Part shown: piece after piece, positions 10,089 through 53,728 of the stretch
Layout: every line of letters starts with the position of its first letter
Numbering within the stretch: the stretch's first letter is position 1
Origin: Desulfobacterales bacterium
GTDB lineage: Bacteria > Desulfobacterota > Desulfobacteria > Desulfobacterales > JAFDDL01
Length of the DNA stretch: 64,000 bases
Reading direction: 5' to 3'
NCBI GenBank assembly: GCA_034003325.1
Contig: JAVEYW010000005.1
Location: forward strand, 86,689-150,688
The notes under the pieces: model-generated
What the model saw: the letters and a program-made list of their open reading frames with translations, nothing else
Databases searched by the model: none
Told to the model about the DNA's origin: nothing
Program-made: the position numbers and the translations under genes

Positions 10089-10126
10089 ACGACCTATAAT
10101 TCGCCATGGGGTAGGGGGCTGCGCTG

Positions 10127-17320: not shown

Positions 17321-18306
17321 GCGCTGAAGCACATACCAATCGCCGGGAGTTTCTTCGCAGGTTACTGGGCGCGGCCCTTACGGCCACCGGCGCGGGCGCG
17401 TTGGGGCTCTCTTTTTGGGACAGGTGGGGACCCCGGGGTACTATTTCCCATACCCAAAATTTGATTCTGCCGGATTTTTCCATTCCGGGGCAAACGGGTA
17501 AAATCAGTGTGGCCCACGGCAGCGACCGGGCTCAAACCGTCACGCTGGCGCTTAACGCGTTGGGCGGCATGAAAGCCTTTGTGCAACCCGGCGACAAGGT
17601 GCTGCTCAAGGTCAATGCCGCCTTTGCCACCCCGCCCGCGCTGGGCGCCACCACGCATCCCCAATTGCTTTCGCAGGTGGTGGCGCTTTGCCTGCAAGCC
17701 GGTGCGGGCCAAGTGATGGTCACCGACAATCCGATCAATGATCCGGCCAGTTGTTTTGAGCTTACCGGCATTGGGCCTGCGGCCCGAAGCGCCGGCGCCG
17801 GTGTGATGTTGCCGGCTTCGGAGCGCTTTGCCGCTTACTCCTTGCCGGGCGGCCATCTGATTCGCAACTGGCCGGTGCTGTGCAACCCCTTGTTATGGGC
17901 CGATAAGCTTATCGGGCTGGCGCCGGTCAAAGACCACCATCGCAGCGGCGCCTCCTTGACCATGAAAAACTGGTACGGCCTGCTGGGCGGGCCGCGCAAT
18001 ATTTTTCATCAGCAAATTCATACCATCATCGCGGAACTGGCCGGAATGATCACCCCCAGTCTGGTGATTCTGGACGGCACCCAGAGCATGATGGCCAACG
18101 GGCCCACCGGCGGGTCCCTGAATGATCTGAAAGCAACCCATACCGTGATTGCGGGTACGGACCCGGTGGCTGTGGACACCTTGGGGGCCGGCCTGCTCGG
18201 CAAGACCGTGGCGGATTTGCCCTATCTGGCCTTAGCTGAAAAGGCCGGGGCGGGAACCGTCCGTGTTGAGGCATTGCACCCCGTCGAGGTGAACGGTCCC
18301 CTGTAA
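17317..18306 (+). CDS. Tat-signal DUF362 domain protein
   Basis: Twin-arginine signal NRREFLRRLLGAALTATGAGALG. DUF362-like blocks: KVLLKVNAAF, PVKDHHRSGASLTMKNWYG, LVILDGTQSMMANGPTGG, AGTDPVAVD. Confidence 0.8.
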   Translation: MSAEAHTNRREFLRRLLGAALTATGAGALGLSFWDRWGPRGTISHTQNLILPDFSIPGQTGKISVAHGSDRAQTVTLALNALGGMKAFVQPGDKVLLKVNAAFATPPALGATTHPQLLSQVVALCLQAGAGQVMVTDNPINDPASCFELTGIGPAARSAGAGVMLPASERFAAYSLPGGHLIRNWPVLCNPLLWADKLIGLAPVKDHHRSGASLTMKNWYGLLGGPRNIFHQQIHTIIAELAGMITPSLVILDGTQSMMANGPTGGSLNDLKATHTVIAGTDPVAVDTLGAGLLGKTVADLPYLALAEKAGAGTVRVEALHPVEVNGPL

Positions 18307-18350
18307 ACGCCTGCGCTCTTGGCGCTTGAACAAGGAATGACGGAAAAACC

Positions 18351-23266: not shown

Positions 23267-24169
23267 TTAACGGCTCAAAATGCGTTCCATTTCAAAAAAC
23301 AAATCCTGCTCGCGGATAACGCCGACCAACTCCCCCTTGGCAAGCACGGCCAGGCGCCGGGCATTTTTATCCAGCATCATAAAGGCTGCTTCCATCAGAT
23401 TGGCGCTGGCCAAGATTGTGTCCGGGGCGGGGGACATGACGGTTTTGATCTGCTTATCGGCCAACTGCATGATCTGGTGCGTGAACATATCACTCCAGAA
23501 CATGGGTGAAAATTGCAGAGCATCCGCTGTGGAAGGTTTTGGTGCCGATAAATAGGACGGCATAATGGCCTTTAATAGGCCACGAATGGAGAGCAACCCG
23601 GCCAGAACGCCGTCGTTATCAATGACCAAAACGGACCGGTGGCCGGTTTCCATCAGACGGCTGGTGGCCATTTTGGATGTAAAGGATTCCTTTAGCGCGC
23701 CGATGGCATCCCGAACCGTCATGTCATGCCGAAGGACCGTATACTCTTCGATCGGCACCATCACGGCGGCCACCTGCCTTTCGCCGGGAGGCGCGTCTTT
23801 ACGGGCGCGTTGATACGCATCCCGTATCTTTGAAGACAATAGGGAAATATCGCACGGTTTGGTGAGATAATCAAAGGCGCCTTTGACCAGGGCTTTTCGC
23901 GCGGAGGGAAGCGCCCCATGACCGGTCAGCATGATGATCGGCAGGTCCGGGTGATTCTCGCGAATTTTATCGAGGAGCTCATGGCCGTCCATTCCCGGCA
24001 TTTTAATATCCAGAATGGCGACATCCGGGTTCTCTTTTAATTTGTTGAGCGCTTCGGGGCCGGATTCGGCTAAAATAACTTGAAATCCCCGGCCCTCAAG
24101 GATTTTCCGGGTAGTTTCGCGAAACCGTTCCTCATCATCCACCATGAGTACTTTAATCACATGGTCCAT
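23267..24169 (-). CDS. response-regulator receiver fused to a CBS-pair domain
   Basis: VLMVDDEE…AILDIKMPGMDG…MLTGHG…KPC, then two CBS-like repeats. AGGAGG RBS. Confidence 0.85.
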   Translation of the reverse strand: MDHVIKVLMVDDEERFRETTRKILEGRGFQVILAESGPEALNKLKENPDVAILDIKMPGMDGHELLDKIRENHPDLPIIMLTGHGALPSARKALVKGAFDYLTKPCDISLLSSKIRDAYQRARKDAPPGERQVAAVMVPIEEYTVLRHDMTVRDAIGALKESFTSKMATSRLMETGHRSVLVIDNDGVLAGLLSIRGLLKAIMPSYLSAPKPSTADALQFSPMFWSDMFTHQIMQLADKQIKTVMSPAPDTILASANLMEAAFMMLDKNARRLAVLAKGELVGVIREQDLFFEMERILSR

Positions 24170-24222: not shown

Positions 24223-24738
24223 TCATTGCACGAACAGCATAAGGGACCAGAAAAAAAGAATCGTCAGACCGATGGAGCCTGCGATGACTACGAGGGCCTG
24301 GCGCCATAAGAGCTTGCTGCCCCGGGTCAACCCGATGCCGATGAGACACCATTTCCAGCTCTCGGATGCCAGAAAGGAACCGGGAAGCCATGAAATCAGC
24401 ATCGGCAAGCTGCCGCTGAATGCGTAAATGCTGAAAAGACGCCCGAATGAAATGGGCGCTTCCTGCGTCAGCCGCATGGTCAGAAATCCGAATGCAGCGG
24501 AAATCAGAATCATGCCGACGCCGTTGAAGATGAAAATGCCGCTGCTGAGCCATGGCGCGGAAGGTTTAATAAGGAAAAAAACCGCACACGAGGCCAGAAG
24601 CGCCGAGAGGAATATCAGGCAGAGCGCATGGCCCCAGTGGGCCGTTTTGCCTTCTTTACTGAAAAACCGACCGGGGGTCAGCAAAAGCCTCCAGACGCTC
24701 TTGCCTAAAAATGAAACACGGATATATTCAGATAACAT
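24223..24738 (-). CDS. polytopic membrane protein (possibly Yip1-type)
   Basis: 171 aa with about five hydrophobic helices. AAGGAA RBS. The family assignment is tentative. Confidence 0.5.
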   Translation of the reverse strand: MLSEYIRVSFLGKSVWRLLLTPGRFFSKEGKTAHWGHALCLIFLSALLASCAVFFLIKPSAPWLSSGIFIFNGVGMILISAAFGFLTMRLTQEAPISFGRLFSIYAFSGSLPMLISWLPGSFLASESWKWCLIGIGLTRGSKLLWRQALVVIAGSIGLTILFFWSLMLFVQ

Positions 24739-24938: not shown

Positions 24939-26861
24939 TTAAAAGCCCGGCAATCCGCTGAAGCCTCTGAACTGCCAGTAAAATGCGGCCAGCGCCAGCA
25001 GGACGATCTGCGCCAGTATCCACAGGGGAACGCCTATGCGCAAAAAGTCCTTTCCCGTCACATACCCGCTGGAGTAAATGATGGCGTTCGGCGGCGTGCC
25101 GATGATCATGCAATAAGCGAACGAAGAGGCGGCGGCCGTGGACATGGCGATAAAGGGCAAAAAGGTGGAACCCGGATGCGCGAGGGCGGCGATATTCAAT
25201 GCAACGGGGCCGACTGCCGCGGCGGCGGGGCCGTCCGCCATCAGGTTTGTCATGACTGCGGTGATACCGTTACTGACCGCCATCAGCGGCAGCCCGGAGT
25301 TAATTCCCAGGGGCGCCAGCGCATCGGTGACGGACCTCGCGAGCCAGTAAGCGGCGCCGGTGCTGTCCAGGACGCGGCCGAAAATGATGGCGCCCGCATA
25401 CAGCCAGACAACGCCCCAGTCGACTCGCTGTTGATAATCTCTCCAGTTGACGACACCTGCCAGCAGGTAGGCCACGGCGCCGCCGACCGCCACGACACCG
25501 ACGCCCAGGCGAAAGGGGAGAATACCGGCTTCGTATATGGTTTTTTCCGTGAACCAGAGGGACATCATGACGACGAAGATGACGAGCGCCATGATCTGTT
25601 TGCCGTTCCATCCGCCCATTTTGGCGATTTCATCTCTTAATTGATTCATGGCAGGCGCCAGGGAATGAATGCGGGGTTTAAACAGCCAGTTGACCAGCAG
25701 CCAGGTCAGAGGTACCATGACGATGAGAAAGGGAAAGCAGTAGGTGACCCACTGAAAAAACCCGATATCATAGCCGAACATATCCTGAAGATAGCCCATC
25801 ATGATGACGTTTCTGGCGCCGCCGGACGGGGCGCCCGGCCCGCCGATGTTGCAGGCCATGACGATGGCCATCATGAGCAGTTTGGCGAGCTGCGGATCTT
25901 CGGGTATTTCCTTGCTCAGGCTGTTTTGATAGAGCAGCATGCCGATGGGAAGAAACATGGCGGCCAGCGCGTGATCCGAAACAAAGGCGGCCATCGGCGA
26001 AATCACGAGAAAAAATCCGAGCGTGATCCAGCGGACGTTCGGTGCTGCGAGCTTATTGAATATCATGAGGCAAACTCGCTTATCGACGCCCGTTTTTACG
26101 AAAGCTGCCGCGAACATGAGACTTCCCATGATGAACCAGACGGAATCACTCCAATACTGGCTCGGCGCCTCATTATAGGGGACTACTCCCGTAAATATAA
26201 GAATCAGGCCGATACAGAAGGCCACCCCCGGAAGCGGAATGCATTCGGTTAGAAAACAGACGACGACGAATACGGCCATGGCGATGGCCACCTGAATGTG
26301 CCAGGCCCCCTTGTCCGCCGCCTTTTTGTCCTTTTCAGCGAGGGTATTGTAGTCGAGCACCTTTGTGCGCAGATTGAATACCTCCTTCATGAGCGTCAGG
26401 TATGCCTCGTCCGTGATGTTTTCCGCTATATAGGTCGTTGCCCGTTGAAGGTTGGTTTCATCCACCGCGATCTTGTATTTGCCGCACCATTTGGCATCGC
26501 GTTTTAAAAATCGGGCTTTATTAAAAGCACCCATGCGCATGTTCTGTTCCATGATATTCGCGGTCAGCAATTGCCACTGGTCCGCATCCGATAGCGCAAC
26601 ATTGAAAAATGTTTTGATAATATGCGATTTGACAGCGTTGGGGCCTATCTGATACTCGGTTCCGACATCCTTCATGGCATTGGGGGTCGGCATGAATAAG
26701 AGGCCGAAAAAGAGAATCACCGGAATGATGAAAATTTTCCAGTCGATGTACTTGTCGTATCCGGTTGCGGGTTTCTTTTTTTCCTGAAGGGCCTGTTCCT
26801 TTTCAGGGGGCATTTTGACCCCGATCTTCCCCGAAATGGGTTTAGAAGTATGCTCTGTCAT
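24939..26861 (-). CDS. SLC13/DASS-family anion:Na+ symporter with an extra N-terminal TM plus loop domain
   Basis: 640 aa. The ArsB/NhaD-superfamily permease core has duplicated hairpin regions (…NIGGPGAPSGGARN… / …SSFAYCMIIGTPPN…). About 190 additional aa at the N-terminus. Confidence 0.8.
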   Translation of the reverse strand: MTEHTSKPISGKIGVKMPPEKEQALQEKKKPATGYDKYIDWKIFIIPVILFFGLLFMPTPNAMKDVGTEYQIGPNAVKSHIIKTFFNVALSDADQWQLLTANIMEQNMRMGAFNKARFLKRDAKWCGKYKIAVDETNLQRATTYIAENITDEAYLTLMKEVFNLRTKVLDYNTLAEKDKKAADKGAWHIQVAIAMAVFVVVCFLTECIPLPGVAFCIGLILIFTGVVPYNEAPSQYWSDSVWFIMGSLMFAAAFVKTGVDKRVCLMIFNKLAAPNVRWITLGFFLVISPMAAFVSDHALAAMFLPIGMLLYQNSLSKEIPEDPQLAKLLMMAIVMACNIGGPGAPSGGARNVIMMGYLQDMFGYDIGFFQWVTYCFPFLIVMVPLTWLLVNWLFKPRIHSLAPAMNQLRDEIAKMGGWNGKQIMALVIFVVMMSLWFTEKTIYEAGILPFRLGVGVVAVGGAVAYLLAGVVNWRDYQQRVDWGVVWLYAGAIIFGRVLDSTGAAYWLARSVTDALAPLGINSGLPLMAVSNGITAVMTNLMADGPAAAAVGPVALNIAALAHPGSTFLPFIAMSTAAASSFAYCMIIGTPPNAIIYSSGYVTGKDFLRIGVPLWILAQIVLLALAAFYWQFRGFSGLPGF

Positions 26862-27091
26862 AAGTTAAATCCTTTATCCGTCAAAGGGTTAGAGACTCGT
26901 CCATAGCGCCATGCCGGCCTTGATTACATCGTTTCGACCAATTTCCCATGGCAGGGAGGCCGCGCCAGGGTGTTTTTGGAAGAGCGGCAGGCTGTTTGAG
27001 CGATAGCGAGTTTCTGCCGGTCTGGAAAAAATACCCTGGCGTGGCCGAAACCATGATCATGGCCGCCATGCCGCGGGACATGACACGATAG

Positions 27092-27544
27092 TTATCCACC
27101 TGAATCCTGAATGATGTTATTTTCGGGAGGGACTGATTTTTTCGCTTTCGCGATTCGTATCTTTTCATCCATGTGCTTTCTTTTCAAAAACGCCGATAGC
27201 GCCTTTTCAATCAGAATTTCCGGATCCACCGGTTTCATCAAATAATCCGTGGCGCCTGATTGCAGCCCTTCAATCGCGGAGTCCACCGTGGCATGACCGG
27301 TCAGCATGATAACCTCCACCAAAGGGAATCGGCGTTTGATTTCTTTTAGTGTGGCGATGCCGTCCATGCCGGGCATTTTGACGTCCAACACCACCACATG
27401 AATTGCGTGGTGCGCCAACAACGCCAAGGCCTCGGTGCCGCTGGACGCGATTCGAATATCATACCCGATTCTGGTCAGTAACTTTTGTGTGGTCTTAAGG
27501 AATCGGTCTTCATCGTCCACTAAAAGCAGTTTAAGATCATGCAT
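27092..27544 (-). CDS. stand-alone response-regulator receiver protein
   Basis: MHDLKLLLVDDED…VVLDVKMPGMDG…MLTGHA…KPV. The ORF extends to a GTG at 27556, but the ATG at 27544 has GGGAGG 9 nt upstream. Confidence 0.85.
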   Translation of the reverse strand: MHDLKLLLVDDEDRFLKTTQKLLTRIGYDIRIASSGTEALALLAHHAIHVVVLDVKMPGMDGIATLKEIKRRFPLVEVIMLTGHATVDSAIEGLQSGATDYLMKPVDPEILIEKALSAFLKRKHMDEKIRIAKAKKSVPPENNIIQDSGG

Positions 27545-27619
27545 GGTTGTTTTCACCTCCCTCTGCGACGCCTGCTCGCTGATTCAATTAACTTGTAATG
27601 GTTGTATATGTATGCCGCA

Positions 27620-29356
27620 TTACACCATGGTTGCACCTGCAGTGGCCCGGGGGGTGGGCAGGTTCAGGAAAAAAGCAGTTCCCTTGCCGGTTTCACTCCA
27701 GAAATCCATGGTGCCACCCATGCTTTCAATAATGCCGTAGCACACGGAAAGCCCTAGTCCCGTGCCTTTCCCGACGGGTTTGGTGGTAAAAAAAGGAGAA
27801 AAAACCCGCTTTTTATTCTCTTCTCCGATGCCGCAGCCGTTGTCCCGAATGGTCAGGCGGACCAGGCCGTTTTCCGCGGGCTGCGCCTCGATTCGAATCT
27901 GACCGCCATCGGCTTCGTGGGCCTCACGAATCGCGTGCATGGCATTGTTTAAAAGGTTTAAAAGCACTTGTTGCAGTTGACCGGGGTCACCGAAAATTTC
28001 GGGAGCTGCCTCGTCTATGATGTGAGAAATCTGAATATTGTTGACCATTGCCTGTTTGTTGACCATGCCGATGATCTCCGGAATGAATTCATTTAGGTGG
28101 ATGGGCTGCGGCGTTGGTTCGGATTGGCGGCCGAACTTTAAAATTCCTTGCGTGATCTGACCGCAGCGGTTGATCTGAAGCTGTATCTGGTCCAGGCAAT
28201 CGGCGAGCTGGGCCGTATTTTCATCGCCCGGAAGCGCGTGTTCCAGAGTTATATCGCGCCACACCATCTGAATGAGGGCTATCTCGGACTTCATGATTTG
28301 CAGCGGATTGTTGATTTCATGCGCAAAGCCGGCCGACATCTCCCCCAGTTCCGCCAGTCTGCTGGCTCGGACCAGTTGCTGCCCCAATGCGCCTTTTTCC
28401 CGATCGATTTTCTCCATTTTTCGAACCAAATAGGAGGAGAGGCTAAAGGCGATGAGGATGATGAAAACGCCGCCGATGGCTGCTATAATAAGGATTTGTT
28501 TGGTTGCGGAGAAAAGGGCATGAAAGGCGTCCTCTTTTTCCTGGCGGACTACCAGCAGCCAGTTCTTTTCCTTCAATGTCATGGTGGCGTAAAGAAAGTT
28601 TTTTTGTGCCGGATCTTGCAGGATAAAGGTCCGTGCGGCTTGGGAGGGCGCTGGGTATTGGGAATAATTGACATCCTTCTCCATCAGCTGCCCCCCTGTT
28701 TGACCTTCCGTCTGATATAATCCGAAGGTGTTGACAATATAGGCTTCGCCGGTTTTTCCGATTCGGACCGCTTCCACCATGTCGTTAAAGGTTTTTGTGT
28801 CGATCGTGGCCCTGAGTATCCATTTCTTCCCGCCGCTCTCCCGCAGCAACGCCATGACAAAATGGGGAACTTGTCGGTATCCCAGGAATACATCGCTGAT
28901 ATACACGCCCTTTTCCATGACACGACGGAACCAGTCGGTTTGTTTGTAATTTTTTTTCTCCAGCGCGAAGGGACCCCGGTATGCGACATGATCCCCCGCT
29001 TCATTGACCACGCCAAGGTCGATAAATGCCTTGGATTCTTGTCCCAATCGCTGAAAAATGTCCGCCAACACGCCCGGACGGCAAAGATCTTCATAATGAT
29101 AGGTTTGAAGAATAAAGAGCAGATCGCTTCTTCTTTCCCGAAGAAAGGTATCAATCATTCGGCCGTGATCCGATACAATGCGGCGCATACTTTGTTTGGT
29201 GTTGCTTTCCAGGGAGGCGTTAAAATAAAAGTAGCCGATGACCAGCGTGAGCGCGAAAGGGATCGCCGGACACACGATCATGCATGCGAGGATGAGCCGC
29301 TTCATGGCGGCGTAAGGATTTTGCATCGTGGCGGTTTTCAATGGTTTTGACTCCAA
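27620..29356 (-). CDS. sensor histidine kinase with a periplasmic Cache-type domain
   Basis: TM, about 260-aa extracytoplasmic segment, TM. H-box FAHEINNPL, N-box LLNLLNNAMHA, G-boxes DNGCGI / GTGLGLSV. The start is uncertain (TTG at 29356; ATGs at 29326 and 29305). Confidence 0.85.
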   Translation of the reverse strand: MESKPLKTATMQNPYAAMKRLILACMIVCPAIPFALTLVIGYFYFNASLESNTKQSMRRIVSDHGRMIDTFLRERRSDLLFILQTYHYEDLCRPGVLADIFQRLGQESKAFIDLGVVNEAGDHVAYRGPFALEKKNYKQTDWFRRVMEKGVYISDVFLGYRQVPHFVMALLRESGGKKWILRATIDTKTFNDMVEAVRIGKTGEAYIVNTFGLYQTEGQTGGQLMEKDVNYSQYPAPSQAARTFILQDPAQKNFLYATMTLKEKNWLLVVRQEKEDAFHALFSATKQILIIAAIGGVFIILIAFSLSSYLVRKMEKIDREKGALGQQLVRASRLAELGEMSAGFAHEINNPLQIMKSEIALIQMVWRDITLEHALPGDENTAQLADCLDQIQLQINRCGQITQGILKFGRQSEPTPQPIHLNEFIPEIIGMVNKQAMVNNIQISHIIDEAAPEIFGDPGQLQQVLLNLLNNAMHAIREAHEADGGQIRIEAQPAENGLVRLTIRDNGCGIGEENKKRVFSPFFTTKPVGKGTGLGLSVCYGIIESMGGTMDFWSETGKGTAFFLNLPTPRATAGATMV

Positions 29357-29399: not shown

Positions 29400-29795
29400 T
29401 CATTGCTCAGACAGGGCTTGCGTCGGTTTACCGGATCGAACCCGGTGAATGACCTCTTTAAGTTGTTCGATGCTATGGCCGCCTTTTTCGACATAGACCA
29501 CGATATCTTGATGCAGGTTCACCTTTTTCCGCTCTTCGGGAAGGGTATGAATGACAACCGGAATCGGCGGAATGCGGCTGTTGAGCCTCTCCATCAGTGC
29601 TTCCGACTCCATGTCCGGCAAATCCGGATCGATCAGCAACAGATCCACCGGGGTCTGCCCGAATGTCCAGCGCAGAAGATCCTGAGCGCTGTCCGCCATG
29701 ATGACGATGAAGCCTTCCGCGGCCAATTCGCGTTTCAAAAACCCCCGGACATGGGGGTTTCGATCCGCAATCAAAATCGTAAATTCCTTTTTCAC
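29400..29795 (-). CDS. stand-alone response-regulator receiver protein
   Basis: ILIADRN…LLLIDPDLPD…HT… receiver pattern. GTG start, 131 aa. Confidence 0.75.
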   Translation of the reverse strand: MKKEFTILIADRNPHVRGFLKRELAAEGFIVIMADSAQDLLRWTFGQTPVDLLLIDPDLPDMESEALMERLNSRIPPIPVVIHTLPEERKKVNLHQDIVVYVEKGGHSIEQLKEVIHRVRSGKPTQALSEQ

Positions 29796-29887: not shown

Positions 29888-29903
29888 GGCAAGGAACATG
29901 CCA
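29888..29903 (-). promoter_or_regulatory. sigma-54 (-24/-12) promoter candidate for the 29795-to-23267 gene string
   Basis: The reverse complement reads TGGCATGTTCCTTGCC, which matches TGGCAY-N5-TTGC. It lies about 95 nt upstream of the start at 29795. Confidence 0.6.
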
Positions 29904-30090: not shown

Positions 30091-30289
30091 CTACAGGGAT
30101 TCGGCTTTTCCGGAAGTCCTCAAAAATTAAGGTTGACATAAAGCCGCTCTTTGCAATAGGTTGCCTGGGATTATCTTATAAAATAAGGATAATATGAGGT
30201 AGGTTGCCCGGTGCTGCGCCCGGAAGGTCGCTTCCGATCATGACACAATGACCGGAGAGCACGCTTGATAAATGGTAAAAGGGGAGGTT

Positions 30290-32248
30290 ATGGATCTTTT
30301 CTTTTCATCCGTCCTGCTGATTCTTGCCGGCGGCGTTTTTGCACTCTATTTTTGGCGGCAATTTCACTTGATGAAGACGGTTGGCGTGGCTGCCGTCAGC
30401 ATCGGATGTGCCCTTGGGGTGATGGATGCCGGCGCCAAACTGTTTGATCAGCAGACATCTTCAGCTTCATTTGTATACTTGCATTCGTTTTCACTTTCTT
30501 TTCAAATCGACAAATTGTCGGCCTTTTTTTTGGTCGCCATTTTCGGGGTATGCCTTCTGGCCACGATTTACAGCTTTCATTATCTGAATAATTCACAAAA
30601 AACGCTTCGAATCGCCGTCAATTATTTCTTTTTCAGTTTGCTGATCGCTTCGATGGCCCTGGTGGTCTGTGCCGCCAATCTGATCACGTTCATGCTCTCT
30701 TGGGAGATCATGTCCCTATCTTCCTATTTTCTGGTTATTTACGATCATCATGCAAGTGAAAACCGGAAGGCGGGCCTTCTCTATTTTGTGTTCTCCCAAG
30801 TGGGCGCCATGTTTATTCTTGCGGCTTTCGGCATCATGTACGGCTATAGCGGCGGGTTCGGATTTGATGTGGGCGCCGCCCTGCCGGACACGGTCAAATT
30901 GGTAGTGCTCATTCTTGCCTTTATCGGGTTCGGGTCCAAAGCGGGCGTTTTTCCCTTTCATGTCTGGCTGCCCCATGCGCATCCCGCTGCCCCGAGCCAT
31001 ATTTCTGCCGTCATGTCCGGCGTGATGATCAAAACCGGTATTTACGGCATATTGCGGTTGTATGTGTCGATGAATCTGCATACACCGCTTTTCGGCGAAA
31101 TCGTATTGGTGGCCGGAATGGTGTCCGGCATTCTCGGGGTGGTGTATGCCCTGGGCCAGCACGACATCAAGCGGCTACTGGCGTATCACAGTGTTGAAAA
31201 CATCGGCATTATTCTGATCGGCATCGGCATTGGCATGATCGGGGTGTCCTTTAACCAACCGTTTATGGCTGTACTGGGATTTTCCGGCGGACTGCTGCAT
31301 GTCCTGAATCATTCCATTTTTAAATCGCTGTTGTTCATGGGCGCAGGCGTTGTGCTTCAGAAAACCGGCACGCGATCCATTGACGCGCTGGGCGGACTCT
31401 TGAAAAAAATGAAAATTACCGGGGCGACCTTTCTGGTCGGTTCCCTCGCGATTTCCGGTTTGCCGCCGTTTAACGGGTTTGTCAGTGAATTTTTAATTTA
31501 TATCGGGGGGTTCAGAGGGATTGCGCTGAGCAGTACCGCTTTTGTGCTGAGCCTGATGGCCATTATCAGCCTGGCGGTTATCGGCGGGCTTGCGCTGGCC
31601 TGTTTTTCAAAGGTGGTGGGCGTTGTGTTTCAAGGTGAGCCGAGAACCGCGGCAGCACAAGACGTGAATGAAAAAGGGCCTGCGATGTTGGGTGCCATGA
31701 TTGTGCTGGCCGTTGCCTGTGTTGTAATCGGTGTGTTGCCCCGGGGATTTATTCAAATGGCCACACAGGGCGTTTCCGCCCTGAATCTGGGCTATGGTCC
31801 CATACCGATTGAACCCTTCTCGCTGATGGCCGGGAATATCACGCTGGGAGCCAGTGTGTTTTTGGCGCTCCTGGTGCTGGTGATGTTTCTGCGACGCCTT
31901 CTCTATAACGGAAAGACCATCGGCAGTGCCGGTACCTGGGGGTGCGGGTTTACCCAGCCCACGCCCAGAATGCAGTACACCGGAAGTTCTTATGCCGCCT
32001 CTATTCTCGAATTTTTTAAACCCGTGGCACCGTTGCACGAGCATCATTCAGCGATTTCAGGGCTGTTTCCGAAGAAAACGCATTATCACGGCCAAATCGG
32101 GGATATCGCCGAGTTGCACATGGACACGCTGGTGGTTCGCCCGGTTCGGTCATTATTTGATAAGCTCAGGTGGATTCAGCATGGGGATATTCACCTGTAT
32201 ATAGGCTACATATTGCTGGCCATGGTGGTGTTGTTGTTTTTTGTATAG
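30290..32248 (+). CDS. HyfB/NuoL-like antiporter-type membrane subunit (Ehr-type complex)
   Basis: 652 aa and polytopic. Mrp/NuoL family blocks (…WLPHAHPAAPSHISAVMSGVMIKTGIYG…). GGGGAGG RBS. Confidence 0.85.
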   Translation: MDLFFSSVLLILAGGVFALYFWRQFHLMKTVGVAAVSIGCALGVMDAGAKLFDQQTSSASFVYLHSFSLSFQIDKLSAFFLVAIFGVCLLATIYSFHYLNNSQKTLRIAVNYFFFSLLIASMALVVCAANLITFMLSWEIMSLSSYFLVIYDHHASENRKAGLLYFVFSQVGAMFILAAFGIMYGYSGGFGFDVGAALPDTVKLVVLILAFIGFGSKAGVFPFHVWLPHAHPAAPSHISAVMSGVMIKTGIYGILRLYVSMNLHTPLFGEIVLVAGMVSGILGVVYALGQHDIKRLLAYHSVENIGIILIGIGIGMIGVSFNQPFMAVLGFSGGLLHVLNHSIFKSLLFMGAGVVLQKTGTRSIDALGGLLKKMKITGATFLVGSLAISGLPPFNGFVSEFLIYIGGFRGIALSSTAFVLSLMAIISLAVIGGLALACFSKVVGVVFQGEPRTAAAQDVNEKGPAMLGAMIVLAVACVVIGVLPRGFIQMATQGVSALNLGYGPIPIEPFSLMAGNITLGASVFLALLVLVMFLRRLLYNGKTIGSAGTWGCGFTQPTPRMQYTGSSYAASILEFFKPVAPLHEHHSAISGLFPKKTHYHGQIGDIAELHMDTLVVRPVRSLFDKLRWIQHGDIHLYIGYILLAMVVLLFFV

Positions 32249-32280
32249 AGGGTAAGAAAATTTCAAAAATAGGATATATT

Positions 32281-33201
32281 ATGATCGAATCCATCCTTCT
32301 TTGGCTTTTCGCCATGCTGATTGCGCCGTTTTTTCACGCGGTCACTCTCAAGGTCAAGGCATTTTTCGGCGGAAAGAAGGGACCACCGTTGCTGATCAAT
32401 TATTATACGCTGATCAAGCTGTTCAAAAAGGGCTCGGTGTACAGTACCAGCACGAGCTATATCTTCAAGCTCGGCCCCATGGTGTCTCTTTGTACGGCGG
32501 CTGTGGTATTGATGTTTTTGCCCATTGCCGGGCGGCCGCCGATTTTTTCGTTTAACGGCGACATTATTTTCCTTTTATACCTGATGGGATTGGGCCGCTT
32601 TTTTACGATCGCAGCGGCCATGGACACCGCCTCACCCTTCGAGGGCATGGGCGCGGCCAGGGAAGCCTATTTTCCCATTATCTGCGAAGCCTCCCTTTTC
32701 ATGATGCTGATCCTGTTTTATCTGCTGACGGGCGAGTTGCAGTTGTCCGCCTATTTTTCCGGTACGCACCCCTTTGAACTGTGGCAGAAGGCGGGGTCTC
32801 CGCTGCTTTTTGTGGTGCCGTCCCTTTTCATTGTGCTGCTCACGGAAAACTCCCGCGTGCCGGTGGATGATCCGGCTACGCATCTGGAATTGACCATGAT
32901 TCACGAGGTTATGGTGCTGGATCACAGCGGGCCGGATTTTGCGTTTATCGAACTGGGGTCTTTTTTCAAGCTGTTTTTCTACGCATCCCTGGTCGGCCGG
33001 CTGGCCTTTCCGTTTGAGCTGGCGCATCCGGCACTGACCATCGTTTTTTTCATCATTGCGTTGTTACCCGTTTACATGGTGGTCGGCGTTACCGAATCGG
33101 TCATGGCCCGATACCGGATGGACAAGGTTCCCAGGTTTGTCCTGACCTCGTTTGCTCTGACTTTTTTTGCGACCGCTATTATCCTGGAGTTTATTCAATG
33201 A
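32281..33201 (+). CDS. HyfC/HycD/NuoH-like membrane subunit
   Basis: 306 aa. NuoH-type blocks (…ENSRVPVDDPATHLELTMIHEVMVLDHSG…). ATG at 32281. Confidence 0.8.
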   Translation: MIESILLWLFAMLIAPFFHAVTLKVKAFFGGKKGPPLLINYYTLIKLFKKGSVYSTSTSYIFKLGPMVSLCTAAVVLMFLPIAGRPPIFSFNGDIIFLLYLMGLGRFFTIAAAMDTASPFEGMGAAREAYFPIICEASLFMMLILFYLLTGELQLSAYFSGTHPFELWQKAGSPLLFVVPSLFIVLLTENSRVPVDDPATHLELTMIHEVMVLDHSGPDFAFIELGSFFKLFFYASLVGRLAFPFELAHPALTIVFFIIALLPVYMVVGVTESVMARYRMDKVPRFVLTSFALTFFATAIILEFIQ

Positions 33202-33839
33202 TCAATTTGGTGGATACGATTTTATCCCTGGTGCTGCTTTCGGTGCTTTTTTCTTTTGCCTCCAGCCGATTGCCCGTGCTGATCAGAGTCATTGCCTTTC
33301 AGGGGGTCGTTGTATCCCTGCTGCCGTTGGTGATGGGGCACGGCATGAGTGGCGGTGAGACGGTGTTTACAGTGTTTACCATGAGCATTCGGGGGATTAT
33401 CATTCCTCTGTGCATTTATATGGCGATTAAAAAAGTGGCCATTCAGCGGGAGGTCGATCCGGTGATCGGGTATCATGCCTCCATGATTGCGGGGCTTTTG
33501 CTGATTGTGTCCGCCACCGTTATCAGCAGGCGCTTTGATGTGCCGTATGCGCATAGCAGTGAATTGCTGTTGCCCACGGCCATTTGCCTTTTGGTGGCGG
33601 GAATGTTTCTGCTGATGGCCAGAAGAAACGCCATTGCCATGGTGCTCGGATACATCATGATGGAAAACGGAATTTACCTGGTGGGAACCATGTTTTCAAT
33701 GCGCACTCGCCATATTGTTGAATTCGGCATTCTTCTGGACGTGCTTGCCGGCGTCATGATCATGGCCGTTATTTTTCAGAATATCAAACAGACCTTTGAT
33801 GACGTGAATACCGCGTTGCTCAGAACATTAAAGGAATAG
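33198..33839 (+). CDS. HyfE/NuoK-like membrane subunit
   Basis: 213 aa and hydrophobic. The start overlaps the upstream stop (ATGA). Confidence 0.7.
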   Translation: MINLVDTILSLVLLSVLFSFASSRLPVLIRVIAFQGVVVSLLPLVMGHGMSGGETVFTVFTMSIRGIIIPLCIYMAIKKVAIQREVDPVIGYHASMIAGLLLIVSATVISRRFDVPYAHSSELLLPTAICLLVAGMFLLMARRNAIAMVLGYIMMENGIYLVGTMFSMRTRHIVEFGILLDVLAGVMIMAVIFQNIKQTFDDVNTALLRTLKE

Positions 33840-33850
33840 GTGATCGGGTC

Positions 33851-35272
33851 ATGGTGGATTTTGTTATCATAGCGCCGTTTCTGACGGGTATTTTGGCTTT
33901 TTTTTTGCCAAAGACATTCGGGCGGATACTGCTGGTGATTACCGGGGTGATTCATTTGGTACTTTCCGTTTTGTTATGGATTTACCGGCCCGCGTCGTTT
34001 TACCCGGAATATTTTGCGATTACGCCGGAGGGGTTGCTGTCTCTTCTGGTAATCTCGCTGCTATTTTTCCTGATCTCCATTTATACGACGTCTTTTTTAA
34101 AGGCCTCCCATATTATTTCCGAGAACATCTTTATCGGCTCAATGCTGCTCTTTTTATCCACGATGACCATGGTAACCCTGTCCGATCACATTATGGTTAT
34201 GTGGATTGCTATTGAAGCAACGACCCTGGCCAGCGCGCCGCTGATTTACACGCACAGAACCGAGGCTTCCCTGGAAGCGACCTGGAAATATGTCCTGATC
34301 TGCTCAGTGGGCATTGCCATGGCGCTTCTGGGCTCCGTGCTCATCACCCTTGCCATGGATGTGGGCAATGTCCATGTGCCGGTGTCCTTTTCCGCGCTGA
34401 CCGTGGCGGCCAAACAGCTCGACCCCCGGTGGCTGAAAGCCGGCTTTGTGTTTATTCTGGTGGGCTATGGAACCAAAATGGGACTTGCGCCCATGCACAC
34501 TTGGCTGCCGGATGCGCACAGCGAAGCACCGAGCCCGGCTTCTGCGCTCTTATCCGGCGTGCTGCTGAACTGCGCGTACTTAGGGATTTTCAAGACCAAC
34601 AAAATCATGGTTGCCGCGGGTCTCGGGGAGTTTTCCGGGATGATACTCATGGTTTTCGGTCTCATGAGCATACTGGCGGCCGCCACCTTCATTTTAAAAC
34701 AAACCGAATATAAACGTTTGTTGGCCTATTCGAGTATCGAAAATATGGGCATTATCGCCTTTGGCACCGGCGTGGGGGGCCTGGGCGCGCACGGCGCCCT
34801 GATTTGCCTGATTCATCACAGTCTGATCAAGTCGTCCCTGTTTTTGACCTCCGGAAATATTCTGCTCGGCTACGGCAGTCGGCTGATCGAGCACACGGGC
34901 AACCTCGTTAACCGCATGCCCAAGACATTTGTGGCGTTTTTCGGCGGGTTTGCCGGTATATCCGGGTTTCCGCCGTTCGGCATTTTTATCGGGGAACTGC
35001 TCATCATTGTGGCGGCGTTTCGCGCCGACCGTTATGTCGGCGCCGGGATATTCATTGCCAGCCTGTGCGTGGTGTTTGCCGGGTTTGCGAACCAGGCCAT
35101 GAAAATTTCCTTTGACGATTCAACCGCCAGGATTCATCTGAGGGAAAAAGCGAGCATGGTCTGGCCGCAATACGTCCTGTTGCTAACCTCCTTGGTGCTG
35201 TGTTTCTGGATGCCGGAGCCCTTGTACGAGACAATTACCCTTGCCGTGAAGGGGCTGGGGGGAGGATTTTAA
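33851..35272 (+). CDS. HyfF/NuoN/NuoM-like antiporter-type membrane subunit
   Basis: 473 aa. …GTKMGLAPMHTWLPDAHSEAPSPASALLSGVLLN… block. Confidence 0.85.
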   Translation: MVDFVIIAPFLTGILAFFLPKTFGRILLVITGVIHLVLSVLLWIYRPASFYPEYFAITPEGLLSLLVISLLFFLISIYTTSFLKASHIISENIFIGSMLLFLSTMTMVTLSDHIMVMWIAIEATTLASAPLIYTHRTEASLEATWKYVLICSVGIAMALLGSVLITLAMDVGNVHVPVSFSALTVAAKQLDPRWLKAGFVFILVGYGTKMGLAPMHTWLPDAHSEAPSPASALLSGVLLNCAYLGIFKTNKIMVAAGLGEFSGMILMVFGLMSILAAATFILKQTEYKRLLAYSSIENMGIIAFGTGVGGLGAHGALICLIHHSLIKSSLFLTSGNILLGYGSRLIEHTGNLVNRMPKTFVAFFGGFAGISGFPPFGIFIGELLIIVAAFRADRYVGAGIFIASLCVVFAGFANQAMKISFDDSTARIHLREKASMVWPQYVLLLTSLVLCFWMPEPLYETITLAVKGLGGGF

Positions 35273-36780
35273 TGGAAACGCCCTTTTTAGAGATTTCAAA
35301 CGGCCGTGCGGTTCAAAGAAATGCCATTCCGCATCTTCATTTTGATGCCTTTTATTCGGAAACGTTAAGCATTGTCGAAAACGGCGGCAAAGTCGTTCAC
35401 TATTTTGCCTATCAGGACGGCGATATCCTGAAGCTTCTCGCGGTGTTGCGGACCGATAAGCTCCTCGTCGCCGGGTGTGATGCGCCTGCCTCCTATCCGT
35501 CGTTAAGCATTCAATGTGAGCCCTTTCATCTGTTTGAGCGGGAGATTGCCGAGCAGTACGGCATTGTTCCGGAATTTCATCCCTGGCTCAAAATGGTGCG
35601 GTATCATCCCAATTGCCGAAATGTCGCCGATGTGTTCGGAAACAATTACGAAGCGGATATTCCGGGCAATTACGACTATTACGCGGTCGAAGGCGAAGAA
35701 ATTCACGAGGTGGCCGTGGGACCGGTGCATGCGGGTGTTATCGAACCCGGACATTTTCGATTTAACTGCATCGGCGAGCGAGTGCTGAACCTGGAAATTC
35801 AACTGGGGTATCAGCACCGCGGGGTTGAGTCCCTGCTGGTCAATGTGCCCTTCAAACGGCTGCCCATTATCGCTGAAGGCATTGCTGGCGATACGGCCAT
35901 CGGCCACAGCCTGTGCCTGGCGCAAGCCTTTGAAGCGCTTTCCGGCGCGATACCGGATGCCGGCGCGCGCATCATTCGCACCATCGCTCTGGAGCTTGAG
36001 CGCATCGCCAATCATGTGGGGGATCTGGGCGCTTTGAGCGGGGATGTGGCTTTTTTGCCGCCCGCGAATTATTGCGGCAGAATGCGCGGCGATTTTCTCA
36101 ACTTGACCTTATGGATCTGCGGAAACCGGTTCGGTAAGGGACTGGTTCGGCCGGGCGGCGTCTTGTTTCCCCTGGCTGCCGCGGATCGAAATACGCTCCT
36201 GGGGCGGCTCGATGAACTGCAACCTCAGGTGGCCCATGTGATGGAACTTCTTTTTAACACGCCCAGCGCGCGGGGCCGGTTTGAAGGCTGCGGTGTGGTC
36301 GGTAAGGAAGATGCGGAGAAACTGGGCCTTGTGGGACCGGCCGGTCGGGCCAGCGGCATCGCCTATGATGTGCGGCGCTGCTTTCCAACGGAGCATTACG
36401 GCAAGCTACAGATTCCGGAAAACGCAAAATCCACGGGGGATGTGTGGGCCAGGGCCAGAATTCGGGCGAATGAAGTACTTCAATCCATCCGCATCATTCA
36501 GTCCCTGTTGAAAGACCCGATCGACACCACCTGCGCTGCAAATGCGATGCCGTCCCCGTTTTCAGCCTCTTTTGTGGTAACGTTAAACGAGGCCTGGCGG
36601 GGAGAGGTTTCCCATTGCGTGCTGACCGACGCGGAAGGGAAACTGCTTCGATACAAGGTCAAGGACCCGTCTTTTCACAACTGGAACGGGCTGTCCATGG
36701 CATTACGCAATACGGGAATCTCAGATTTTCCCCTGAACAACAAGAGTTTCAACCTGTCCTATTGCGGGTTTGATCTCTGA
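35272..36780 (+). CDS. HycE/NuoCD-like 'large subunit' lacking the NiFe-binding cysteines
   Basis: NuoC-like N-terminus followed by GPVHAGVIEPGHFRF…LGYQHRG. The L1 motif position reads AEGIAGDTAIGHS rather than RxCGxC. The C-terminus reads SFNLSYCGFDL* rather than DPCxxCxxR/H. The ATG overlaps the upstream TAA. Confidence 0.85.
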   Translation: METPFLEISNGRAVQRNAIPHLHFDAFYSETLSIVENGGKVVHYFAYQDGDILKLLAVLRTDKLLVAGCDAPASYPSLSIQCEPFHLFEREIAEQYGIVPEFHPWLKMVRYHPNCRNVADVFGNNYEADIPGNYDYYAVEGEEIHEVAVGPVHAGVIEPGHFRFNCIGERVLNLEIQLGYQHRGVESLLVNVPFKRLPIIAEGIAGDTAIGHSLCLAQAFEALSGAIPDAGARIIRTIALELERIANHVGDLGALSGDVAFLPPANYCGRMRGDFLNLTLWICGNRFGKGLVRPGGVLFPLAAADRNTLLGRLDELQPQVAHVMELLFNTPSARGRFEGCGVVGKEDAEKLGLVGPAGRASGIAYDVRRCFPTEHYGKLQIPENAKSTGDVWARARIRANEVLQSIRIIQSLLKDPIDTTCAANAMPSPFSASFVVTLNEAWRGEVSHCVLTDAEGKLLRYKVKDPSFHNWNGLSMALRNTGISDFPLNNKSFNLSYCGFDL

Positions 36781-36791
36781 ATTACCTTTAA

Positions 36792-36840
36792 CTATCAGCT
36801 ACCAGCTATCAGCTACCAGCTATCAGCTACCAGCTATCAG
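36792..36840. repeat. heptamer tandem array (CTAYCAG) x7 in the intergenic gap between the large- and small-subunit genes
   Basis: Direct reading: CTATCAG CTACCAG CTATCAG CTACCAG CTATCAG CTACCAG CTATCAG. Confidence 0.9.
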
Positions 36841-36867
36841 CTTAAATCTAATAAGAGTGAACGCATC

Positions 36868-37611
36868 ATGCTCAACACGCTGAAAAACCGATTTGAACAA
36901 GGATATCGTACTTCCCGCTATCCAAAAGAGAAAATCGAACTGGCGCCGCGCTATCGCGGCATGCCGCAGATTCACCCGGATGCTTCGGCGGAACTGGCGG
37001 TTCGGTGCGCTGAAGCCTGTCCGCAAAATGCCATTGACGCCGAACGGAAGATCATCGATATGGGCCGTTGTGTATTCTGCGGTACCTGCGAGCGTATCTC
37101 CGAAGGCAAGTTTATCTCTTTTTCACGGAATTTCGAGCTGGCCGTTAGCGAAAAGGCGCATCTGATGACGGATGGCGCTTTGCCGGATCTGGCCTGCCAC
37201 GCCAGACAGCACTTCAAGAAGTTATTCGGTAGATCGCTTCAACTTCGGCAGGTTTCTGCTGCGGGCTGCAATGCCTGCGAGGCGGACCTGAACGTGTTGG
37301 CCACGCCGTTCTTCGATTTGGCGCGGTTCGGCATCAATTTTGTGGCCTCGCCCCGTCACGCCGACGGCATCGTGGTCACCGGCCCCATCTCCAGGAACAT
37401 GAAAACCGCACTGCTTCAGACCTATGAGGCGGTGCCGAATCCCAAGGTCGTAATTGCCGTTGGAAGCTGTGCGCTGACCGGCGGCCCGTTCCGGGGAAGT
37501 CCAGAGGTCACCGAAGGCCTGGACACCCTGCTGCCCGTGGATCTTTTCATTCCCGGCTGCCCGCCGCATCCCATGACGAACCTGCATGCGTTACTGACGT
37601 TTTTTAAGTGA
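36868..37611 (+). CDS. HycF/NuoI-like (one-cluster) ferredoxin domain fused to a HycG/NuoB-like small subunit
   Basis: RCAEACP…CVFCGTCERI (one complete cluster set). Then GCNACE, ASPRHADGIVVTGP, GSCALTGGPF and PGCPPHP (four proximal-cluster Cys retained). Confidence 0.85.
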   Translation: MLNTLKNRFEQGYRTSRYPKEKIELAPRYRGMPQIHPDASAELAVRCAEACPQNAIDAERKIIDMGRCVFCGTCERISEGKFISFSRNFELAVSEKAHLMTDGALPDLACHARQHFKKLFGRSLQLRQVSAAGCNACEADLNVLATPFFDLARFGINFVASPRHADGIVVTGPISRNMKTALLQTYEAVPNPKVVIAVGSCALTGGPFRGSPEVTEGLDTLLPVDLFIPGCPPHPMTNLHALLTFFK

Positions 37612-37714: not shown

Positions 37715-38083
37715 TTAAAAATACGTTGCCTCAAACAGGATGTTTGCGTCTTTTAGCCGTGCATAATCCATCTTAAGTCGCTCATTGGCGATATGACGGG
37801 TCGTTCTATCATCGACATCGCTCTCGTTTATCGGGCAAACCGCATAAACTTTTGTGACGGTGTCCGATTTCTCTTGTGCGCGTCGCGTCGATGTGAAATC
37901 CGCCATGAGCAGACACCTGTCCGTTTCGATGTCGATGTCGTCGGTAGCTTCCGATTGGTTTACTTGTTTGATCAAATTCCGGTAAACTTTAATTTGAAGT
38001 TTAACGGTTTGGCCTGATTTGGCGCGGTTGATAAAATTGTCCAGTCTCTCCTTCGAACCGTTGGTCAGGTCTTCACTCAACAT
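37715..38083 (-). CDS. hypothetical protein (122 aa, soluble, acidic)
   Basis: Strong AAGGAGGG RBS 6 nt upstream of the ATG. I recognise no motif. Confidence 0.6.
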   Translation of the reverse strand: MLSEDLTNGSKERLDNFINRAKSGQTVKLQIKVYRNLIKQVNQSEATDDIDIETDRCLLMADFTSTRRAQEKSDTVTKVYAVCPINESDVDDRTTRHIANERLKMDYARLKDANILFEATYF

Positions 38084-52226: not shown

Positions 52227-52303
52227 CTAATCTCTATGCGCTATGCTCTACGCTCTATGCTCTAAGCCCTATGCTCCAAGCTCTATGCTCTTTGCTGTAG
52301 GCT
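52227..52303. repeat. degenerate heptamer tandem array (CTATGCT) x11
   Basis: CTAATCT CTATGCG CTATGCT CTACGCT CTATGCT CTAAGCC CTATGCT CCAAGCT CTATGCT CTTTGCT GTAGGCT. The last unit overlaps the lpd stop codon. Confidence 0.85.
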
Positions 52304-53726: not shown

Positions 53727-53728
53727 GG

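Follow-up and report, generated by a model that had tools for sequence, protein, structure and literature searches.

A six-gene operon at positions 30290-37611 of a 64,000-nucleotide (nt) stretch of Desulfobacterales bacterium DNA, analyzed as a whole and called the window hereafter (assembly GCA_034003325.1, contig JAVEYW010000005.1, positions 86,689 to 150,688 of the forward strand), encodes a complex that descends from the Hyf/group-4f hydrogenases and cannot itself be a NiFe hydrogenase. We find that the locus very probably specifies an intact, functional complex of the energy-converting hydrogenase-related (Ehr) type, of which it is a typical member. The class is already known: relatives of group-4 hydrogenases without NiFe ligands were named Ehr (Coppi 2005; Marreiros et al. 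2013, both as cited in later papers) and have been reported in Geobacter, Margulisbacteria, Saganbacteria, Melainabacteria, comammox Nitrospira and ammonia-oxidizing archaea, each report either describing the function as unknown or speculating about a formate dehydrogenase partner. As late as 2023, publications described what Ehr does as unknown, in agreement with an initial annotation of this stretch, according to which no substrate or physiological role was known to have been shown for the class. The literature that we searched contains no paper giving Ehr a reaction and none linking Ehr with carbonic anhydrase (CA). Ehr complexes are widespread and stand at the evolutionary junction of membrane-bound hydrogenases and complex I. 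The window alone adds one member to them, and comparative leads that the initial annotation had missed carry most of the interest: a family signature, a stepwise loss of iron-sulfur (Fe-S) clusters and, in relatives, a link to carbonic anhydrases and anion transporters.

The six-gene operon and its former NiFe site

Six plus-strand open reading frames (ORFs; g1 to g6 below) follow one another from 30290 to 37611 with near-zero spacing and in the order hyfB-C-E-F-G-(H+I). Their coordinates and their Pfam and NCBIfam matches support the packed, partly overlapping HyfB-to-HycF-HycG arrangement that had been read from the DNA initially. The first gene (g1, 30290-32248, 652 amino acids [aa]), whose start is set by a GGGGAGG Shine-Dalgarno sequence just 5' of the ATG, encodes a HyfB/NuoL-like antiporter-type membrane subunit (Pfam Proton_antipo_M, 4e-53; NCBIfam hydrogenase-4 subunit B, 574 bits, under the cut-off of 667). 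After a 32-nt gap comes a HyfC/HycD/NuoH-like membrane subunit (g2, 32281-33201, 306 aa; Pfam NADHdh, 1e-32), which overlaps by 4 nt with a HyfE-like membrane subunit whose C-terminal half is NuoK-like (g3, 33198-33839, 213 aa; NCBIfam hydrogenase-4 membrane subunit, 3e-23; Pfam Oxidored_q2, 2e-5, under the cut-off). A further antiporter-type membrane subunit, resembling HyfF and NuoN (g4, 33851-35272, 473 aa; Pfam Proton_antipo_M, 2e-51; NCBIfam hydrogenase-4 subunit F, 6e-99), begins after an 11-nt gap and shares 1 nt with the large subunit (g5, 35272-36780, 502 aa), in which a NuoC-like N terminus precedes a HycE/NuoD-like body (Pfam/NCBIfam Complex1_49kDa, NuoD). The last gene, 87 nt further on (g6, 36868-37611, 247 aa), fuses a HycF/NuoI-like ferredoxin half (NCBIfam formate hydrogenlyase [FHL] iron-sulfur subunit, 1e-19 over residues 1-112) to a HycG/NuoB-like small subunit (Pfam Oxidored_q6, 7e-30).

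The assignment to Ehr made in the initial annotation stands, given a homologous large subunit from which both CxxC pairs are absent, a NuoB-type small subunit, and NuoH- and antiporter-type genes. It had also described a six-subunit make-up as a trait of the class; although six genes are indeed found here, the published Geobacter cluster spans seven loci (GSU0739-45), and the number is thus not fixed. When every ORF of 150 aa or more in the window was scanned with Pfam, none matched a hyp/hyc maturation gene, an endopeptidase, a formate dehydrogenase or a CO dehydrogenase, as had been noted at the outset. With Pfam and NCBIfam, NuoA and NuoJ had no match in the window, the cluster having only its six genes, and no Mrp-type subunits (MbsA-G homologs) were found in or beside it.

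Where hydrogenases carry their N-terminal NiFe motif, g5 reads AEGIAGDTAIGHS (35872-35910, +; residues 201-213), which aligns without gaps (HMMER) to DRVCGICGFAHS of HycE, ERMCGICSFSHN of MbhL and PRMDYLHSFAHD of Nqo4. Over this segment HycE has RVCGICGFAHS and MbhL RMCGICSFSHN, the two cysteines being replaced in g5 by Ala205 and Thr208. The former C-terminal motif is now SFNLSYCGFDL followed by the stop codon (36745-36777, +), with Ser496 and Gly499 in place of the cysteines of Cys-bearing sister proteins. We examined these positions in a family alignment of 81 sequences, made up of the window protein, 76 full-length representatives of clusters formed at 50% identity, and four Cys-bearing sisters. 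All four sisters (R[IV]CG.C and ...LCYSC.DR) have cysteine in each of the four ligand columns. The 77 Ehr-type sequences have Ser or Ala at column 205 (Cys in eight), Ser or Thr at 208, Ser at 496 (74/77) and Gly at 499 (76/77), and their C termini follow the consensus NKSF[ND]LSY[CSA]G.DL, as against NKSF.LCYSC.DR in the sister hydrogenases. With A205, T208, S496 and G499, g5 is non-Cys at every one of these columns. Its Cys498 sits out of register between two former ligands and is Cys, Ser or Ala across the family; therefore, it is not a hidden ligand. Both the gap-free pairings with HycE, MbhL and Nqo4 and the 81-sequence alignment rule out that the motifs were mis-registered, and they confirm what had been claimed initially, namely that every NiFe ligand is lost, with the N-terminal motif at nt 35872-35910 and the C terminus read as above. 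Since all of these ligands are gone, the complex cannot bind NiFe, and so it neither makes nor uses H2.

Ligand loss is not the only change. Asp207, between the two former N-terminal cysteines, is present in 73/77 Ehr sequences where true hydrogenases have Ala or Val, and the family consensus at this site is E-x-[IV]-[SA]-G-D-[ST]. This difference points to a positive signature for the Ehr family, [S/A]-G-D-[S/T] ... L-S-Y-x-G-x-D-L, beyond the mere absence of ligands. The hydrogenase motif GP.HAG.IEPGHFRF, including its glutamate (Glu158), is kept in g5. As judged from these alignments, the former active site has been remade as a polar pocket comprising Glu158, Ala205, Gly206, Asp207, Thr208, His212 and Ser496. 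A single-chain AlphaFold model of g5 reached moderate confidence only, with a mean pLDDT of 73 and low values precisely at the C terminus and in the beta1-beta2 region. By phmmer the best solved relative of g5 is Escherichia coli HycE (7z0s_E, 3e-36), with Nqo4 (1e-31), MbhL (2e-29) and MbsL (6u8y_L, 2e-17) also matching, and the top Foldseek match of the AlphaFold model is also HycE (TM 0.78).

The loss of all four metal ligands, together with the lack of maturation genes nearby, could also be taken to mean that the locus is a hydrogenase operon in decay, or that it encodes a true hydrogenase with misaligned motifs. We consider this hardly credible. Besides the alignments described above, the residues that replace the ligands are conserved across phyla, and the genes lack frameshifts and internal stops: at every related locus where the contig permits (approximately 80 genomes), all six are full-length and in the same order. 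Compared with four orthologs, the six genes have dN/dS values of 0.05-0.16 (pN 0.10-0.21; pS 0.6-0.75, which is saturated), g5 (0.06-0.10) and g6 (approximately 0.05, the lowest of the six) being the most constrained. As far as sequence can tell, intact frames, shared order and purifying dN/dS rule out a decaying pseudogene set, the alternative that, according to the initial annotation, frameshifts in orthologs or a lack of expression would indicate. Moreover, all Ehr subunits of Geobacter sulfurreducens have been detected by proteomics, with the highest abundance on formate without acetate (PMC7894505).

Relatives of the operon are numerous. A scan of one genome per species returned more than 556 loci encoding them, the best 80 of which belong to Desulfobacterales and Desulfobulbales. 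At 50% identity there are approximately 750 clusters with E < 1e-30 to the large subunit, a count that includes the Cys-bearing sister hydrogenases, and more than 120 clusters (90% identity) lie at 73-79% identity to it and have the identical length of 502 aa. Further members of the Ehr family come from gut Rikenellaceae, Spirochaetia, Hydrogenedentota and nitrifiers, and sulfur-cycling bacteria account for many of its hosts (Desulfobacterales, Desulfobulbales, Sulfurospirillum, Magnetoovum and Geobacter). Two contigs with close relatives are filed under unexpected names, L002 (JAIWHJ010000176.1) as a "Promethearchaeota archaeon" metagenome-assembled genome (MAG) and L020 (CAYVFC010000088.1) as a "Sandaracinaceae" MAG. 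Their large subunits, the sole gene compared for both, are 72-74% identical to g5 of the window, and this likeness to Desulfobacterales suggests that the contigs may be mis-binned.

Iron-sulfur clusters, membrane arm and energy coupling

Two cluster-binding sets are complete in g6. The NuoB-type set of the small subunit is intact, with C134 and C137 (GCNACE), C201 (GSCALTGG) and C231 (PGCPPHP). The ferredoxin half contributes C68, C71 and C74 (CVFCGTC) along with C51, the Cys-Pro cysteine of the first motif, and its second set is reduced to Cys47 alone. These residues agree with the initial annotation, which had counted four proximal-cluster cysteines and one complete ferredoxin-type set. In an alignment of 80 relatives (77 from the clade of this locus and the others from three distant clades), each of the eight positions is Cys in 79-80 sequences, and the sole exception is a Rikenellaceae sequence without C134, C137, C201 and C231. 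In two-cluster ferredoxins, each cluster is held by three cysteines of one motif and the Cys-Pro cysteine of the other. The combination retained in g6 is the one reported to bind cluster N6b, the neighbor of N2, in Nqo9 of the Thermus structure (Sazanov and Hinchliffe 2006). Because the retained set has the N6b pattern next to N2, the cluster that was lost is the distal one.

The membrane arm is conserved throughout. Functional antiporter-like subunits are defined by a Glu in transmembrane helix 5 (TM5), Lys in TM7 and TM8, His or Lys in TM11 and Glu in TM12. No charged residue with which such subunits of complex I and of the membrane-bound hydrogenases move ions is missing here. E139, K217, K248, H337, H341, K345 and E400 of g1 are conserved in at least 95% of 55 relatives, and E122, K209, H323, K327 and E382 of g4 and the membrane glutamates E156 and E175 of g3 likewise reach at least 95%. 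The acidic TM5-6 loop of g2 (D196, D197, H201, E203, E209 and D214) is conserved to the same degree, and the charged residues of the arm are also kept in distant members from Hydrogenedentota, Sulfurospirillum, Magnetoovum and Rikenellaceae. Conservation of these canonical residues in g1, g3 and g4, distant phyla included, gives good support to the prediction that the complex moves ions. Of the initial description of the locus as an ion-translocating redox module with altered pocket chemistry, the ion translocation thus holds up, and the redox function and new pocket chemistry are plausible only.

For this organism we tentatively propose, as the likeliest reading, a redox-driven ion pump, a mechanism that we rate a little short of probable. 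A soluble low-potential carrier, probably ferredoxin, would reduce the outer of the two remaining clusters directly, and from there the electron would reach the N2-type cluster, located where the large, small and HyfC-like subunits meet. Changes in protonation coupled to the redox state near Asp207, Glu158 and the acidic HyfC loop could drive translocation of H+ or Na+, and a small acceptor, or the reverse reaction, would complete the cycle. We think that the complex is still redox-driven because both Fe-S ligand sets are invariant in this clade and because g5 and g6 are its most constrained subunits.

Several observations weigh against such a pump. Its weak point is that no electron acceptor can be named. 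In the five phyla inspected, no conserved redox partner (formate dehydrogenase, NuoEF, Hdr or ferredoxin) is encoded beside the operon, and the genes that do recur there (for carbonic anhydrases, anion transporters, CBS proteins and EIIA-type regulators) would be more expected around a transporter with a homeostatic role than around a respiratory enzyme. The residues that bind quinone in complex I are absent from g5, in which His38 of Nqo4 corresponds to Ile157 and Tyr87 to Gly206, both replacements being conserved family-wide. This clade has lost the distal cluster, the one through which FHL, Mbh and complex I receive electrons. Finally, in the Rikenellaceae/Alistipes clade all four NuoB-type cysteines are replaced in 120/120 small-subunit homologs (by Asp in 120, Val in 112, Glu in 115 and Ala in 104, respectively; homologs P0412-P0531, all distinct, with pairwise identity down to 58%; example L088:8644-9429). 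C51, C68, C71 and C74 are invariant in that clade, its large subunits keep G-D-S and L-S-Y-C-G, and its membrane subunits keep their charged residues. The pocket signature and the membrane arm thus persist without the NuoB-type cysteines, which implies that electron delivery to the pocket is not essential across the family.

Set side by side, the clades suggest that cofactors dropped out stepwise, from NiFe plus three clusters in the sister hydrogenases to three clusters, then two at this locus, and one isolated cluster in Rikenellaceae, with the membrane arm and the rebuilt pocket constant throughout. The distal cluster has been lost specifically in the Desulfobacterota subfamily; all eight cysteines are retained in Sulfurospirillum, Magnetoovum and a third lineage. 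The Cys-bearing sister locus L090 encodes the ferredoxin and small subunits in separate, unfused genes.

Two other redox functions were weighed alongside the proposed pump. The complex could be a ferredoxin:menaquinone oxidoreductase, in effect a minimal complex I that lacks the NADH module: it has homologs of NuoB, C, D, H, I, K, L and N, the N2-type cluster is kept, and the host order uses menaquinone. We reject this as improbable, because the head-group ligands His38 and Tyr87 have given way to Ile157 and an invariant Gly206, and because g2 is of the hydrogenase type. The best solved relatives of g2 are HycD (7z0s_D, 1e-23) and MbhM (6cfw_M, 3e-22), both far nearer than ND1 of complex I (approximately 1e-7). 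The absence of NuoA and NuoJ genes and the retained hydrogenase-type EPGHFR also speak against quinone reduction, as does the reported occurrence of Ehr in Margulisbacteria with no identified pathway for quinone synthesis (PMC6349859).

A reductase of small sulfur compounds, with an iron-sulfur cluster itself as the catalyst as proposed for Pyrococcus MBS/Mbx, seems just as improbable. In its favor, many hosts are sulfur-cycling bacteria, MbsL is a detectable relative of the large subunit, and a DASS-type anion symporter is encoded nearby in the window. However, the extra Mrp-type subunits of MBS are absent, and the large subunit is much closer to HycE than to MbsL. Nor is the family confined to sulfur-cycling hosts, given its members in gut Rikenellaceae, Spirochaetia, Hydrogenedentota and nitrifiers, and no sulfur-metabolism gene is found among the conserved neighbors.

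Carbonic anhydrases and anion transporters beside related operons

We clustered the flanking ORFs of 80 related loci, of which 45 Desulfobacterales-type and 11 Desulfobulbales-type loci were informative. In eight of the 11 Desulfobulbales-type loci, a 393-aa protein annotated as hypothetical is encoded directly upstream on the same strand and/or a beta-carbonic anhydrase directly downstream. The downstream enzyme is canonical (Pro_CA, 4e-38). The upstream protein falls just short of the threshold for Pfam LCIB_C_CA, but many of its homologs have precomputed PF18599 matches, and Cys54, Asp56, His106 and Cys133 are invariant among 38 sequences. Its single-chain AlphaFold model (mean pLDDT 73, low at residues 48-96) retrieved LCIB/LCIC family members as all of its top seven Protein Data Bank (PDB) matches in Foldseek (PtLCIB4, LCIB, LCIC and a CCM-related protein). 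We conclude that this Desulfobulbales protein is a homolog of LCIB-type beta-carbonic anhydrases. Its gene is found at loci L059-L080 and L091-L160 (for example, L070:3621-4802), cable bacteria included (L065). The link also holds in the reverse direction: when metagenomes were searched with a profile of the LCIB-like protein, 22/38 informative loci carried Ehr genes and 6/38 the LbH gene described next. Some of these LCIB-linked loci represent a second Ehr clade, 41-49% identical to the window proteins.

A different partner predominates in Desulfobacterales-type loci, 34/45 of which encode a 473-aa double left-handed beta-helix (LbH) protein, mostly directly downstream of the operon (L001-L055; for example, L003:12601-14022, -). 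This protein is 65% identical to PDB 3c8v, a "putative acetyltransferase" (6e-210 with a profile of 20 aligned sequences, A1), and its gene is usually paired with a CBS-pair gene and has also been found adjoining the LCIB-like gene. Its LbH fold is certain, but it has only marginal matches to gamma-carbonic anhydrases, CcmM and PaaY, and equally to LpxD, GlmU and acetyltransferases, and the three-histidine zinc ligands could not be placed. CBS-pair proteins are encoded in 21/45 of these loci, a DASS transporter in 15/45, and a DASS or ClC anion transporter in 18/45; histidine kinases and sigma-54 response regulators stand near the operon in 13 loci each. A regulator with HTH_17 and PTS-EIIA2 (PtsN-like) domains recurs beside the operon in three Ehr clades, including upstream of the Hydrogenedentota-type operon (L011, L023, L036, L040, L079; L082:4248-4943; L100:11239-11913). 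In some Desulfobacterales it is accompanied by a ClC channel and an upstream 411-aa protein that includes a weak PPDK_N-like nucleotide-binding region. Loci of distant phyla have the six genes by themselves. Taken together, the neighbors in relatives suggest a role in the homeostasis of anions, inorganic carbon or pH, and not one in a dedicated pathway of catabolism.

These associations bear on the main alternative to the redox pump, in which the complex would be a gradient-driven device, either non-redox or redox-gated, with the peripheral arm serving as a plug, sensor or docking platform. The membrane arm, moving H+ or Na+ either down a gradient or against one, could then act as an Mrp-like cation/proton antiporter or as a proton puller for a carbonic anhydrase. 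Such vectorial CO2 hydration, in which a proton is pulled from the carbonic anhydrase reaction, is the mode of DabAB and of CupA-bearing cyanobacterial NDH-1. We regard a gradient-driven device as possible while leaning against it. In addition to the carbonic anhydrase neighbors in Desulfobulbales-type loci, the Ehr genes at LCIB-profile metagenome loci and the LbH, DASS and ClC genes of Desulfobacterales-type loci, the stepwise cluster loss beside a fully conserved membrane arm would fit it, as would the HTH-EIIA regulator, recurrent upstream even in the Hydrogenedentota-type locus. DAB2, whose structure joins a beta-CA-like DabA to a NuoL-like DabB, offers a precedent (bioRxiv 10.64898/2026.03.13.711513). 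Against such a device, tblastn found no LCIB-like, beta-CA or LbH gene within the 64-kb window, and the Sulfurospirillum, Magnetoovum and Rikenellaceae loci that we inspected are without such neighbors. Gene neighborhood reflects a shared physiological setting, not physical coupling, and the available matches do not establish the LbH protein as a gamma-carbonic anhydrase. Moreover, invariant Fe-S ligand sets and the strongest constraint on g5 and g6 would be unexpected of a mere plug in this clade.

We speculate that the Desulfobacterota Ehr complexes, this locus included, form the energy-coupling core of an undescribed system of inorganic-carbon and anion homeostasis, an idea that we think unlikely as it stands. 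If it were true, Ehr, the LCIB-type and canonical beta-carbonic anhydrases, the LbH/CBS pair and the DASS or ClC transporters would jointly drive the interconversion or uptake of CO2 and HCO3-. A complex-I-type module and a carbonic anhydrase would then have been joined independently for a third time, NDH-1MS/CupA and DabAB being the other two cases, and the loss of Fe-S clusters, with the N2-type cluster gone in gut Rikenellaceae, would mark a shift from redox-driven to gradient-driven operation. Irrespective of that outcome, the Asp-gain signature, the clade-wise cluster loss and the two-way link to carbonic anhydrases and anion transport make the role of Ehr more testable, since they name candidate partners, conditions (low inorganic carbon, pH and Na+) and residues to probe.

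Surroundings of the operon and known systems

Within the window, the genes upstream of the operon lie on the opposite strand. Nearest is a divergent response regulator (29400-29795, -), followed by a dCache histidine kinase (27620-29356, -), a second response regulator (27092-27556, -), a DASS sodium-coupled anion symporter (24939-26861, -; NCBIfam DASS, 227 bits, over the cut-off) and a receiver plus CBS protein (23267-24169, -; Pfam Response_reg and CBS). Identified through Pfam except where NCBIfam is named, all five are putative members of the same system, and the two-component system probably controls expression of the operon. The DASS protein is only approximately 25% identical to the DASS neighbors of relatives. 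Three short ORFs are doubtful as genes: a 171-aa ORF (24223-24738, -) and a 122-aa ORF (37715-38083, -), both without a Pfam or NCBIfam match, and a 95-aa ORF (26881-27168, -) without a Pfam match. Downstream of the operon, the opposite strand encodes an acyl-CoA synthetase and a PAS/sigma-54 activator.

Noncoding sequence in and around the operon yielded few candidates for regulatory elements. Most of the 87-nt spacer between g5 and g6 is filled by a perfect 14-nt tandem repeat, CTATCAGCTACCAG x 3.6 (36792-36842, +; Tandem Repeats Finder score 102, 100% matches), which occurs once in the window. The corresponding spacer measures 8-375 nt among orthologous loci and contains 7-nt repeats in L015. 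The spacer folds no better than shuffled sequences (z -1.3); no riboswitch or other known RNA was found in it or in the 490-nt leader, and the whole window gave no Rfam match at the gathering threshold. Scans for sigma-70 promoters and terminators returned nothing convincing, and no plus-strand sigma-54 promoter matched upstream of g1. A sigma-54-like element, TGGCATGTTCCTTGCC (TGGCAT-N5-TTGC; 29888-29903, -), lies upstream of the divergent response-regulator gene and faces it, but elements of this type are no more frequent in the window than expected by chance. The approximately 150-nt leader of g1 also contains an imperfect inverted repeat, TTATCTTAT-AAA-ATAAGGATAA (approximately 30171-30192, +).

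Further from the operon, the window encodes two Nitro_FeMo-Co (NifX/NifB-C-like) domain proteins (3011-4598, -), an SSF sodium:solute symporter followed by an exonuclease-domain protein and a cNMP/CBS/DUF294 nucleotidyltransferase (6063-12481, +), and a DUF6599-DUF362-polyferredoxin trio (16292-20306, +). It also holds a 2-oxoglutarate dehydrogenase E1-E2-E3 set (52302-57809, -), which is unusual for strictly anaerobic Desulfobacterales.

Among characterized machines, DabAB/DAB2 and NDH-1MS (CupA) resemble the Ehr loci of relatives in that an antiporter-like module is paired with a protein of beta-CA fold, here an LCIB-type CA and/or a beta-CA. Unlike DabA/PF10070 or CupA, the partner is LCIB-type, and the machine is a six-subunit Hyf-like complex with Fe-S clusters; the pairing itself comes from gene neighborhood alone, in relatives, the partner being absent from the window. 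Pyrococcus MBS/Mbx (6u8y) and MBH (6cfw) are group-4-type membrane complexes and detectable relatives. MBS reportedly lacks a NiFe site yet conserves energy (Yu et al. 2020). In contrast to both, there is no counterpart here to the Mrp-type subunits MbsA-G/MbhA-G, and MbsL is a much weaker match to the large subunit than HycE. Complex I/NDH-1 shares homologs of NuoB, C, D, H, I, K, L and N and the same ion-translocation residues, but its subunits are clearly more distant than those of FHL, and the locus has no NuoA, J or E-G, has Ile and Gly in place of His38 and Tyr87, and encodes a NuoH homolog of hydrogenase type.

Closer resemblance is found to E. coli hydrogenase-4 (Hyf) and FHL (Hyc, 7z0s) and to the uncharacterized group-4f [NiFe] hydrogenases, which have the same gene order and provide, in HycE and HycD, the best solved relatives. 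The nearest Cys-bearing relatives share the C-terminal NKSF.L.Y with g5. Differences from Hyf and Hyc include the lack of NiFe ligands, HyfA/HycB, HyfD, formate dehydrogenase and hyp genes, and a ferredoxin subunit that is fused to the small subunit and has one cluster instead of two. The closest match in kind is the Ehr of Geobacter sulfurreducens (GSU0739-0745). Compared with its published description, the Desulfobacterota subfamily is distinguished by having exactly six genes, the HycF-HycG fusion and the loss of the distal cluster. The ligands of the proximal [4Fe-4S] cluster, regarded as an Ehr trait, are present here but are not universal in the wider family, as the Rikenellaceae clade without all four attests. 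The two share group-4 large and small subunit homologs, NuoH-like and antiporter-like subunits, absent CxxC pairs and a retained N2-type motif.

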